Made by a program: the position numbers. From Escherichia coli (GTDB lineage Bacteria > Pseudomonadota > Gammaproteobacteria > Enterobacterales > Enterobacteriaceae), in assembly GCF_003334765.1 (NCBI RefSeq), contig NZ_QOWT01000048.1: DNA of 21,358 nt; one strand, 5' to 3'. Numbering within the stretch: the first letter of the stretch is position 1; the number at the start of each line of letters is the position of its first letter. Positions 1 through 6,000 of this stretch are shown piece by piece.

Positions 1-3000
1 GGCAATGGAACAAATTACCGCCCATTGTGAGTCATATTCGCCCTGACTTTCCAGAACCATACGAATCGCCCTATGACGGACTTCGGGGGAAAACGAGTAT
101 TTTTAGTCATCCTGTTTACCTCTTTCTCAGGGAGTTTAGTCTCCAGGATTCCCGGGCAGTTCATTTTCCGGATCGTATTTTATTAAAGCATCACGAATAT
201 TAACAATGTAAATCAGAGCGTTATCTGGCGACATCCAGGCATTGGGGGGTAGGTTTGCCCTCATGGGGCCCTTTGGTGAGCCCTACCGGTGTCACACCCG
301 AAGAGACAATCACCTCTGGAACCTCATTGAGATGCTGGCAAAAGCGCTGGAACCATAATTCCAGATTCATACCATTGGCGAGAATCAGTTATGCCCCCTG
401 CGCACGTTTAATATCACCAGAGGTGGGCTAAGACTCATGAATTTCTGCACCCGGCTTGGTTATGGATGAGACTTCTGCATCATCTTCAGCCACTTTTTTG
501 GCCATATCCGCGATGATGGTAAATGTTGTTATGGATATGATCTGCACAGTATTCAGCTTCCAGAATCTGTACACTTTTCCACTCACACAGCTTTCTCAAA
601 ATACTGCCTGTTGCTCTACGCTTCTCTCTGTAGAACACTTGTCTTCGGTATTTTGGCGCAAAAACTATGTGATATTTACAGTTCCATCGTGTGTGCGCTA
701 AGCTCTTTTCGTTCCCCATTGGGACCCCCTTTTGATTTCTTGTTTGACACTTGCAGTTGCCAGACCGCAAGGTGTTTTAACAAATCAAAAGGGGTTTTAA
801 TAACTGGCCTCAAAGCTGAAAGCTTTCCGGAACCCCCAGCCTAGCTGGGGGTTTTCTGTGCACAAACAGGCTCAGGACGGCGGGAATGATCCCGCCTCCT
901 GCTCGATCGCCCAAAACACGGCTTACCGAGGCTATTCCTTGTCCGAAGATAACAAGGACACATACATTATCCATTTGCGATTGCGCATACTCCACTGCTT
1001 CCCTGAGGATCTCAACTTCCATGGTTAATGAGATGGTCCCCACCACCCTGTGAGCTGTACCCTAGTAGAGTGTTTTTCTTTCATGGAGAAGACCATCATG
1101 CAAAACATTACGCTTATTGGTATAGATCTTGGCAAGCATTCCTTTCACATTCACTGCCAAGATAAGTCAGGCAAGGTATTGCTGCGTAAAAGTTTACCCG
1201 TACCAAACTTATTGAGTTTCTGGCAGGCTGTGCCTCGTCTACCGTTGTGATGGAAGCCTGCGCCGGAGCTCATTTTATGGCTCGCCGGATTGCTGATTTA
1301 GGTCATGAAGCAAAATTGATTTCTCCGCAGTTCGTTCGCCCTTTTGTTAAGAGCAACAAGAACGATTTTGTCGATGCAGAAGCCATATGCGAAGCGGCAT
1401 CTCGTCCCTCCATGCGATTTGTGCAACCACGAACAGAAGCTCAGCAGGCCATGCGGGCGCTTCACCGGGTCAGGGAATCATTGGTCAGTGATAAAGTCAA
1501 AACGACCAATCAGATGCATGCTTTTTTGCTGGAATTTGGCATCAGTATGCCGACAGGAGTCGCAGTGGTAAAACGACTTTCAACAGTACTTGCAGAGAAC
1601 GAACTTCCTCCCTATCTGGCGCAGTTACTGATGCGCTTACATGCCCATTATATTTACCTTGTCGGACAGATCACCGAGCTTGAAATCGCACTGGAGCAGG
1701 AACTGAGTCGTGATGAGGTAGGACAACGTCTTCAGACAATACCCGGTATTGGTCCGATAACCGCCAGCGTACTGTCATCGCAGCTGGGAGACGGTAAACA
1801 ATATAGCTGCAGTCGGGACTTTGCTGCTTCAACCGGTCTGGTACCCCGGCAGTACAGCACAGGTGGTAAAAATACCCTTTTAGGGATAAGTAAACGTGGA
1901 GATAAAAATCTGCGACGGTTACTCGTTCAGTGCGCAAGATCCTTTATTCAGAGAATCGAGAATCAGTCAGGAAGGTTGGCGGATTGGGTCAGGGCGTTGT
2001 TGGCAAGAAAACACTCCAGCGTAGTATGTTGCGCACTGGCCAACAAATTAGCCCGGATAGCGTGGGCAATCACAACACAGCAGACTGTGTTCGAAAGGTA
2101 ACGATGGCGCCAGTCTGGCTGGCAGGTTAATCATGAATTAAAGTAGTTCCCAATCTGGTTTTGCGAAGACTGATTATTGATGACATGAACGGCATATCGG
2201 CCTGATGAAAAGCCTCAGCAAGAAAATGGCTCACTGAAGCCGGATGGTTTTTTGGGCTCATCAGGTGTGGAACTCATCGAGGCGCGGGCATCCATGCCCA
2301 TAATGACGCCGGATAGATTTAGGCAAGCCAACATCAATCAAAATCAGTGTTGCAAAAATGGTGGGGACCATAGATTCTTGCCCAGTAAACGCTGAACCTG
2401 ATTAATCTGCTTTATCGCAGCGGCCAGTTCAGAAGCAGGAACAACGTCTTCACCAGCAGCAACAGCATTGAGAGTTCCTTCCAGGTATTGTTTCTTCCAC
2501 TTAAACAACTGGCAGGGCTGAATTCCATGTAAACGAGCCATCCGGGCCAGCATCATTCCTGGCTCATTAAAGGCCATTTCAGTTATCAGCTCTTTCATAC
2601 CCGGCTTACGTGCTTGATAAGTATAAGTGAGCTGAAACACACGGTGGCAGTCACGGTAGCGAAATCTGTCACGGCCTTTAGGGTTCTGACCATGGCGGTA
2701 AACCTGAGCTGACTGACAACGGGGACAATGAATATTAACGCTGGACATGAGATAACCTCAAAAGCCCGTATTATACATCAGATTCAACTAATTAGAGGCA
2801 TCACCAATATGTTTATAGCAATCTCAAATAATGATATAAAACATATTTTCATTGGCTTTTAAAATAAGTCAAGAATTGTTTTGGTGTTATGCCAAAATGT
2901 TTTACAAAAAGCCTAATGAAATATGATGTACTGGAAAATCCTATCATATTAGATATCTGTGATATCTGATATGAGTTATCAAGCAACAGCAATGCTGCTT

Positions 3001-6000
3001 TGCTCATTCTTGATTGCATAAGGATCTGGTTAAAAGTAATATACTCTGACTCAAGCCTTTTCCTTATTGTTATCTCTGATACATTAAATTCATCTGCAAT
3101 AATAGCTAGAGTCCATCTCTTTGATAAGTCCTTCTCGATTGTGTTTCTGACCTTATCGGAAAAGAAGCTTACAGCCGATATATAAATTGACTCGATAATT
3201 TTCCTGTTGTTTTCGATCTTTGATATAAGATATATCAAATCTGAAGTAATTCTTGAATCATCATTATGATCGATACTCTTGAATGTATCTAATACAGAAT
3301 CGTCAGCATCAGCTACAATTATTCCTTTTGACCAATTCGGACAACTGCAAGCATCTACTTTTGATATTCCGTATATTATCATCAGGGCATCCTTTAGGCG
3401 TCTTAATGTATCGCTGCTTAATCTGATTGCGATAAATGGATTTACTGTTGATTTCTTCTTTTGCAATCTTACTGATATATTTATTCCTCTCTCAAGAAAT
3501 ATGAGTTCATTTCTAAGATATGTATTGCTTCCTTCTTTTGTGTATACATCGATTGTACAATTAGATGTATATAGTACAGTGTACTGATGTATTCTGATAT
3601 TGTTAATTTTTATAATCTCTTTTTCGATATTTTGTTTTAATTTCATATCATTCTCACATGAAAAAATGTCTTTATCAGGCAACTCTGCGTTAGAGTGACC
3701 TAACTTTTATCAATAAAAAGATAAATTTTTAACTCATATAAAATACGTTTATTAATTTCCACATCGTCATGTGGGATATGATTTTTACGCTTATAATTAC
3801 AATAAGCAATTATTTATCGTGTTCTTGCCCCCTTATTTCCAGACAGGGGTTGTATCTTAATTGCAGCCCAGTCTATAGCTTCACGATCGCAACAGTCCAG
3901 GGAGAACGTAACTCGCAGTTTTTCGCTATCATCGCAACCAAACTCAAAGCCATCGGAACACCAACGCTGGTTGCTTTCCTTCACCGATATCGGCCTTTAT
4001 GTTCCCGCTGCTGTCGTGATGGTTTGTCATGTAACAACAACAGACTATTTTCGCTCATTATCCGGTAAACACGCTTTGCATTCACGAACGGTAGTCCTTC
4101 ATTTCGGGACTGCCGCCTGAGTATCGCCCAGACACGGTGATACCCGTATGTTGGCATATCGCCAATAATATACAGGATGCGCGCCAAGGGATACTGCTAC
4201 GATAATGCCTGCGTGGAAAGGTTCTTTCATTCGCTGAAAGTGGAATGTCTCCACGAAGAACATTTTATCAGCCGGGAAATAATGCGGGCAACAGTGTTTA
4301 ATTATATCGAATGTGATTACAATCGCTGGCACCTGGTGGTCTCAGTCCGGAACAATTTGAAAACCAGAACCTCGCTTAGACCTGTGTCCATATTACGAGG
4401 GTGGGATCAATCACAAGAAATGTCATTCCCAAAACGCTGGATAGGAATCCAGCGTGGAGAGTTGAAATTTTAGCTAGAGCTCGATATTATTTAACCCATT
4501 CGGTTAGAGCACTATATTTTTGGACTCCAACCTTATTTGTCTTGTTAATGTCTTGGTTCGTATTTACAGGTGTGGAGGGGGTAACAACCCCTTTGAAGTT
4601 GCTTGTTGTGCCGTCCTTATAATAAAATACCCCGGAGACAGACACCCCCCTTACTTTCCCTTCATTAAGGCCTTGCATACATACTGGGACACCGCTGTTA
4701 TAAGTATACTGTACTCCAGACAGTTTTATACATTGGGACGGGTCCACATTATCTGCGTTCCAACCGCTACCACCCGCAAAGGCATTCAGGCTGATACCCA
4801 AGATGCCAGAAAAGATAACAAACTTAATTTTTTTCATATGACTTCTCTCTAGATATTCCCCATGTATATAGAGGTATTTTTCACAATAAATAATTACGAG
4901 ATTTAGAGGTTATAATTCAGCCAATGCCGCCCCTCCTTTTAGAAGGTTAGCATAATAAAGAGTTGCGGTCAGATAAAAAATAGCAACATATATCGAGTGT
5001 TGCTCGTTTCGACTGAGGATATCCATTTCTATTTTTATATTATTTTATAATACATGTTAACTATCCATTTGTTATTGTTTGCATTCTTATTTCCATAATA
5101 TTGAATAATAATTTAACAATACTAATATTTCTTTTTGGAGATAATTATGAACATAATATATTCGCTTAAATACAGTTCATTGACTGATGGACTGGACTTG
5201 TCGCTGTATCTGAATTAACTAGAAGAATTTCGAGTAAAACAAACCGAAAACTTGTAGCAACAATGCTGTCTCTGACTGTTGCAGGTACAGTAAATGCAGC
5301 GAATATTAATATATCAAATGTATGGGCGAGAGACTATCTTGATCTTGCACAGAATAAAGGTATCTTCCAGCCCGGAGCAATAGACGTAACAATCACTTTA
5401 AAAAACGGAGATAAGTCCTTTTCCATAATCTCTTAATTCCGGATTTTTCTGGTGCAGCAGCGTTCTGGCCCCTATTTGAATATCTCCATTGTGTCATTAT
5501 TCTATCCTTCCGATATCTTATCATGTTATAAATTTCAGAAAAGAGAACATTGTATTGGGAGGTATTGATGAAGGCTGGAAAGAATTTTCATTCCTTGTCG
5601 AAACAAGCAGCTTCTGCAGAGAAGAATATGGATCTTGCTCTTGCTTTTGAGCTCTGGAAACTGGCCTCTTTATTCTGTAAGAAAATAGAGAACATAGAGT
5701 GGTGCATGAATAGAGCAATGTTTTGCGAGGCTTATATAAGCAGAAATCAGGACGGTCAGAAACTGTAGTAGTCAACAAAAACTGTCTAGACTGGCCTAAT
5801 CTCTTATTTTAAGATACATCTACTGTCTGGTATTTCAGGGGACCAGTCTAAATAGCTGCGCGGAATAGTAGATCACTTTGAGGGAACTCAGCCCGGATTG
5901 TGCGATCTGATCAATCGCCCAAAAGAAAAAATTACCAAGCGGACTGAGCGATGCCGATCATAGCACCAATCCCCAGAACCGAACGATGCCTGATGCAGAA

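Follow-up and report, generated by a model that had tools for sequence, protein, structure and literature searches.

What kind of locus brings together an AraC-family activator, a dispersin gene and a very small open reading frame (ORF) amid insertion sequence (IS) debris, and is the small ORF a genuine regulator? The question is raised by a stretch of 21,358 nucleotides of Escherichia coli (contig NZ_QOWT01000048.1 of assembly GCF_003334765.1), to which we refer as the window. A first-pass annotation had placed aggR, aap and an aar-like ORF within it and had proposed that an activator, its antagonist and the exported cargo share one neighborhood, a proposal that our analysis supports and that agrees with a system described in 2014 to 2016 (PMC4038620, PMC4983702). 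Judging from sequence comparison, we put the probability at about 97% that the locus is the AggR/Aar feedback module of the aggregative-adherence (pAA) plasmid of enteroaggregative E. coli (EAEC), together with its dispersin target aap. The window contains all three genes in intact and identifiable form, a ribosome-binding site in front of aar, and conserved promoter blocks with AggR sites.

On the strength of its predicted protein, the 66-codon ORF at 5568–5768 on the plus strand is more than aar-like: it is the aar gene, whose product is the archetype of the ANR (AraC negative regulator) family. This follows from two matches. The curated NCBIfam model NF033650 (ANR family transcriptional regulator) was matched over its full length, residues 6–59 aligning with profile positions 1–54 of 54, with a score of 65.5 bits where the cut-off is 32 (E = 2.7e-18), and the protein agrees at 63/63 residues with Aar of strain 042, whose reference plasmid pAA2 is RefSeq NC_017627. 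An extra C-terminal QKL then follows, the window allele being longer than the 63-aa 042 protein because its stop codon comes three codons later. The 66-aa form is the commoner of the two among sequenced plasmids and has the length of the AMRFinderPlus reference, and AMRFinderPlus results retrieved via PLSDB report the reference aar at 100% identity in pHUSEC41-2 and pE1246_1. Among the matches listed, 23 plasmids carry the 201-nt gene without a single difference (100% identity), including those of 55989 and O104:H4 C227-11. The strong ribosome-binding site claimed for the ORF is borne out by direct reading of the sequence, with a Shine–Dalgarno GGGAGG at 5557–5562, 5 nt before the ATG.

Size, position and predicted fold point the same way. 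ANR proteins are smaller than 10 kDa, with 39–80 aa, and their genes adjoin and diverge from that of an AraC/XylS-family activator (PMC4038620); the 66 residues of Aar fall inside this range, and aar (plus) lies 1.9 kb from aggR (minus) on the opposite strand. The single-sequence AlphaFold2 model, of moderate confidence (mean pLDDT 74.7), has helices at residues 4–18, 23–39 and 43–64, and the family is described as having three conserved helices (PMC4983702). In 042, aar (orf60/orf61 of pAA2) occupies the same place, downstream of aap and divergent from aggR. The initial suggestion that the ORF fits an ANR anti-activator in size and position, offered together with a profile search as its check, has thus been confirmed.

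Genes of this family were also seen in other surroundings. An aar allele (97% identical) is found without aggR on the E. coli E110019 plasmid NZ_CP035753.1 (8992–13823), where an intact pet follows about 750 bp downstream and espT is close by; NZ_CP051000.1 and NZ_CP148358.1 likewise carry aar and gave no aggR match. The 042 pAA plasmid (NC_017627.1) has a second, very different ANR-family gene of 70 aa at 12187–12399, beside finO in the transfer region, and we saw no counterpart to it in the window.

The activator gene aggR lies at 2849–3646 on the minus strand and encodes the AraC/XylS-family master virulence activator of 265 aa, plus a stop codon. Mechanical ORF calling extends it to 2849–3682 from a TTG, and the ATG at 3646 is the start that fits the annotated 265-aa AggR. 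The product is nearly identical to AggR of 042 (261/265 residues), from which it differs by V68A, H127N, R148K and T169I. AraC-family models matched residues of about 163–276, the C-terminal DNA-binding region, all below their equivalog cut-offs, as expected since AggR is not an orthologue of the proteins that those models describe. Its close relatives include Rns/CfaD of enterotoxigenic E. coli (ETEC). Immediately downstream of aggR, at 2344–2748 (minus), is a chimeric 134-aa ORF whose N terminus resembles an IS1 zinc-binding InsA-like region and whose residues 55–125 resemble the IS2 TnpA repressor. Work on 042 (PMC8595720) reports that aggR, lacking a terminator, gives transcripts that run far past the ORF, and for that reason the differing debris downstream of aggR could alter the stability of its mRNA.

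The dispersin gene aap, at 4487–4837 on the minus strand, encodes 116 aa, of which 112 are identical to dispersin of 042. The first 21 residues (4775–4837, minus) form the signal peptide, the N terminus reading MKKIKFVIFSGILGISLNAFA followed by GGSG, with cleavage between AFA and GG. The AFA/GG junction had been named in the first-pass annotation and is correct: the solved structure of mature dispersin (PDB 2JVU) aligns with Aap from Gly22 onward (E = 4.5e-57), cleavage between Ala21 and Gly22 has been established by mass spectrometry (PMC7478709), and 042 has the same junction. The N-terminal palmitoylation of dispersin depends on AatD (PMC7478709). In the window protein, by analogy with 042, cleavage after Ala21 would be followed by N-acylation of Gly22 through AatD and by export via the Aat system. 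The aatPABCD exporter is itself encoded in the window, starting with the aatP ORF at 10064–11194 (plus), and is annotated in the homologous plasmids; the start of aatP (10064) is 4.3 kb from aar, 5.2 kb from aap and 6.4–7.2 kb from aggR.

The surrounding sequence identifies the replicon. In a megablast search with window positions 2700–5900 against 72,556 plasmids, 24 plasmid records covered at least 80% of the query at one locus, the best being 99.7–99.9% identical, and the annotation under the match in these 24 is aggR, aap and aar. Over most of its length the window is 99.3–99.8% identical to related pAA plasmids, among them pE1246_1, pHUSEC41-2 and that of 55989. On account of these matches and their annotation, the window is a piece of an EAEC pAA virulence plasmid. 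The gene aar with its promoter was present in 60 of 5,426 complete E. coli genomes, plasmid-borne every time and annotated as aar. The earlier assignments of aggR and aap, for which a BLAST search had been named as the check, hold up against the 042 proteins, the plasmid annotation and 2JVU, and both genes are on the minus strand and AT-rich as described: aggR, aap and aar have 33–40% G+C vs. 46–53% in the IS debris between them.

The promoters of the module are conserved by position. The AggR consensus is WWWWWWWTATC, located 21–23 bp upstream of the −10 element, which revises the older AnnnnnnTATC (PMC6392122). We located the 042 promoter blocks listed in Table 1 of that study in the window by homology. 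The autoactivated aggR block (3674–3748, minus) carries the AggR site AAAAATTTATC at 3720–3730, a perfect match to the consensus; the upstream autoactivation site is thereby conserved, one base of the A/T tract differing from the 042 form AAAAATATATC. Aligned ungapped, this block mismatches 042 at 11 of 75 positions, mostly past what looks like a 1-nt indel among the final 10 positions, near its 3′ end. The AggR-dependent aap promoter, known from 042, is conserved at 4926–5000 (minus; 4/75 mismatches) with the perfect site TATTTTTTATC at 4972–4982, and that of aatP at 9933–9986 (plus; 3/54 mismatches) with the perfect site AATTATATATC at 9951–9961. Upstream of aar, the same proximal and distal candidate sites are found as in 042. 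The proximal block (5478–5552, plus; 4/75 mismatches) contains the candidate AggR site ATTATTCTATC at 5496–5506, with a −10-like hexamer 22 bp downstream at 5529–5534. The distal block (5336–5410, plus) contains the candidate ATAAAGGTATC at 5354–5364 and has 13/75 mismatches, mostly in its first 17 bases. The TATC core is intact at the AggR sites of aggR, aap, aar and aatP, and each of the four intervals proposed at first for a motif search (3647–3800, 4838–4990, 5450–5567 and 9740–10063) holds a site homologous to one in 042.

Nothing contradicts this identification of the locus; several results limit the support for it. The promoters characterised in 042 are those of aggR, aap and aatP, and the two aar sites are predictions only (PMC6392122). 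The motif is degenerate: the relaxed AggR rule of Yasir et al. was satisfied 154 times in the window, a −10-like element accompanying 25 of these matches, and perfect matches numbered 22 against 5.45 expected from shuffles, an excess that AT-rich patches explain in part. The −10 criterion of the scan moreover misses the characterised aggR and aap promoters. We rejected the motif scan as an independent test because it does not discriminate, and the argument therefore rests on positional homology to the promoters characterised in 042. A generic sigma-70 scan of 2300–6100 gave 16 hits vs. 12.6 ± 3.4 in shuffles and did not pick the AggR-dependent promoters. Since activator-dependent promoters tend toward weak −35 elements, such a null result is expected, but it lends the identification no support. 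The Pfam scan of the 66-aa protein found no match even at E ≤ 10, and a PDB sequence search with it returned nothing at E ≤ 1 and no ANR structure.

The lack of a Pfam match, together with the position of the ORF between the relic of a SPATE (serine protease autotransporter of Enterobacteriaceae) gene and an IS630 remnant, would suit a chance or decayed, unexpressed ORF in IS debris. We regard this as scarcely credible: besides its full-length match to the curated ANR model, its strong Shine–Dalgarno sequence, its conserved promoter block and its unchanged DNA in the 23 plasmids, the 042 protein to which it is identical has been detected experimentally at 7.23 kDa (PMC4038620).

With the ORF taken as aar, the behavior of the module can be proposed from the literature on 042. 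There, AggR activates its own gene, aap and aatPABCD (PMC6392122), as well as aar (PMC4038620), and orf60/aar is AggR-dependent and in turn represses aggR (PMC4038620). Deletion of orf60/aar raised aggR about twofold and aatC 37-fold. The central linker of AggR is a high-affinity target of Aar, whose binding disrupts AggR dimerisation and prevents DNA binding (PMC4983702). In the window copy, AggR would accordingly be expected to bind an A/T tract followed by TATC, 21–23 bp upstream of the −10 element, and to turn on its own gene, aap, the aatPABCD exporter and aar. The AggR-activated Aar, a protein of 66 residues and three predicted helices, would then bind the central linker of AggR and block its dimerisation and DNA binding, so that the regulon may shut itself down after induction. 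Given this literature mechanism, the module can be read as delayed negative feedback, in which an activator induces its own protein antagonist, with dispersin and its exporter among the outputs.

A different mode of action has been considered in which Aar works mainly via the global silencer H-NS and the local pairing of activator and antagonist is secondary. Two studies report interactions of H-NS with Aar and with further ANR members as well (PMC5570504, PMC10148876). Direct binding to the AggR linker was nevertheless shown for a protein with the identical core (PMC4983702), and the two activities are not mutually exclusive; we consider it quite unlikely that H-NS is the main route, and retain the direct antagonism of AggR by Aar. 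The same logic is found in ETEC with Rns/CfaD, where an AraC-family activator is accompanied by a divergent ANR gene, the dispersin-like cargo CexE and an Aat exporter (PMC4038620, PMC7478709). The ETEC ANR homologues are different alleles, those tested being 80% similar to orf60, and CexE is 23.7% identical to Aap (figures from the literature).

Is the neighborhood itself maintained? We found aggR at ≥95% identity in 52 plasmids, 44 of which also carry aar, and in 43 of these 44 the order and relative orientation of aggR and aar are as in the window. The gap between the two genes falls into distinct sizes: 1.9 kb (20 plasmids), 3.0 kb (2), 4.35–4.55 kb (7), 6.7 kb (3) and 8.05 kb (11). As the order is kept across about five gap sizes, the trio has remained linked through repeated insertions. 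The exception is NZ_CP096978.1, in which aggR and aar are 32.5 kb apart and inverted relative to each other. No megablast match to aar was obtained for eight aggR plasmids, which all carry the 96% allele (NC_008460.1, CP091392.1, NZ_AP022812.1, NZ_AP022816.1, CP056605.1, NZ_PP261911.1, NZ_PP261912.1 and NZ_PP261916.1), and three plasmids carry aar but no aggR. The aggR match in CP051693.1 is unannotated and 797 nt long instead of 798, which suggests a frameshifted gene.

Conserved order need not mean selection. The clustering may be passive, reflecting common descent from one recent pAA island with too little time for the genes to separate, and we give this an even chance. Shared descent suffices to explain the linkage, because the plasmid copies of aggR and aar are all 96–100% identical, and proximity is unnecessary for function, because in 042 about 31 kb separate aggR from aat, which belongs to the same regulon. 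The separation in NZ_CP096978.1 and the plasmids with one gene and no detectable partner fit passive clustering as well. Against it, order and orientation were kept in 43/44 plasmids over at least five gap sizes, which points to several independent insertions, and the distant ETEC homologues of ANR also adjoin and diverge from their AraC-family partner, which is harder to explain by recent descent (PMC4038620). This ETEC pattern of an ANR gene beside an AraC-family gene would be the better argument for selected linkage. The claim that the regulon parts are kept together despite disrupted intervening DNA thus stands for the aggR–aap–aar trio and fails for aat, which begins 4.3 kb past aar in the window, 55989 and pHUSEC41-2 and lies far from aggR in 042.

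The IS and SPATE debris that separates the genes is filler without function, the residue of repeated insertions into one inherited island. Between aggR and aap lie two fragments of an IS2-type (IS3-family) orfB/TnpB at 3814–4187 on the minus strand (ORFs 3814–3984 and 3981–4187), which matched NCBIfam PRK09409 (IS2 TnpB) with E = 1e-20 and 9.4e-20 at profile positions 122–163 and 54–119 of 301, respectively. They are followed by a C-terminal fragment of another IS3-family transposase at 4177–4335 on the plus strand (within the ORF 4177–4473), matched by NF033516 with E = 5.8e-15 at positions 305–356 of 369; 042 has two partial IS3-family transposases annotated at the matching spot between aggR and aap. 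An IS630-family transposase remnant, frameshifted, follows aar at 5986–6899 (plus; NF033545, E = 7.6e-21 and 4.3e-30 on two ORFs), and 042 too carries an incomplete IS630 downstream of aar. The larger of two SPATE relics, a frameshifted and truncated sepA at 7297–9085 (plus), is situated between aar and the aat operon. It includes an ORF at 7297 with an ESPR-type (extended signal peptide region) signal peptide and the ORF 8336–9085, which matches SepA residues 292–524 (E = 6.1e-141), and is truncated by IS3-type debris at about 9057–9684.

The smaller SPATE relic reaches into the control region of aar. It is the 5′ remnant of a Pet/EspC-class gene at 5138–5460 on the plus strand, comprising the end of the extended signal peptide and about 50 passenger residues, with a frameshift near 5420 beyond which the motif LIPDFSGAAA goes on in the shifted frame to about 5460. 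An NCBIfam scan of the SPATE relic ORFs gave no matches. PDB sequences identified both this relic and that of sepA, and a DNA alignment to pet was used for the smaller one: its translation resembles the first 38 residues of mature EspC (E = 5.6e-13) and Pet (E = 9.1e-12), and 5138–5393 is 68% identical to the 5′ end of pet. Together with the orfB and NF033516 matches, these results substantiate the first-pass description of IS3-family orfB fragments and a SPATE relic between the genes. In 042, a block of about 2.5 kb with IS481 and IS3 is inserted near window position 5350 and cuts the relic in two; this accounts for the divergence from 042 at the start of the distal aar block. The distal candidate AggR site (5354–5364) falls within what was once SPATE coding sequence (QNKGIF), and about 40 bp separate the end of the relic from the proximal site. 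The control region upstream of aar may derive from the dead 5′ end of this gene, an origin that we consider unlikely: if the distal site does aid AggR-dependent induction of aar, pseudogene DNA would here have been recruited, on a small scale, for regulation.

Other elements of the window were noted in passing. Rfam reported the 5′ domains (D1–D4) of a group II intron at 16228–16514 on the plus strand (137 and 54 bits), followed by a 450-aa ORF at 16560–17912 whose sequence resembles a reverse transcriptase/maturase; the related plasmid NZ_CP139842.1 has a group II intron reverse transcriptase/maturase, ltrA, annotated inside the matched stretch. This intron region (16228–17912) has 54–60% G+C, and Rfam reported no intron 3′ domain past the maturase ORF. 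A group II intron 3′ domain is found at 9444–9515 (plus, 47 bits), about 500 bp upstream of the aatP promoter, which places a 3′ piece upstream of the aat operon and a 5′ piece downstream. A full-length match to Rfam STnc490, an Hfq-binding small RNA, lies at 729–853 on the minus strand (140.5 bits vs. a gathering score of 56) and adjoins the ORF 1247–2101, which by eye resembles a putative IS110-family transposase.

Earlier work has already described every element of the locus: genes, ANR family, feedback loop, promoters and neighborhood alike. The points that go beyond the textbook are minor, namely the candidate AggR site in former SPATE coding sequence and the three-residue extension of Aar relative to 042. 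The value of the analysis lies solely in correct annotation. How strongly virulence genes are expressed in EAEC is set by the AggR/Aar pair, and epidemiological work has linked loss of aar with disease of greater severity (PMC4038620). With aggR, aap and aar intact and their promoters conserved, the plasmid studied here is marked as a typical, fully regulated pAA plasmid.

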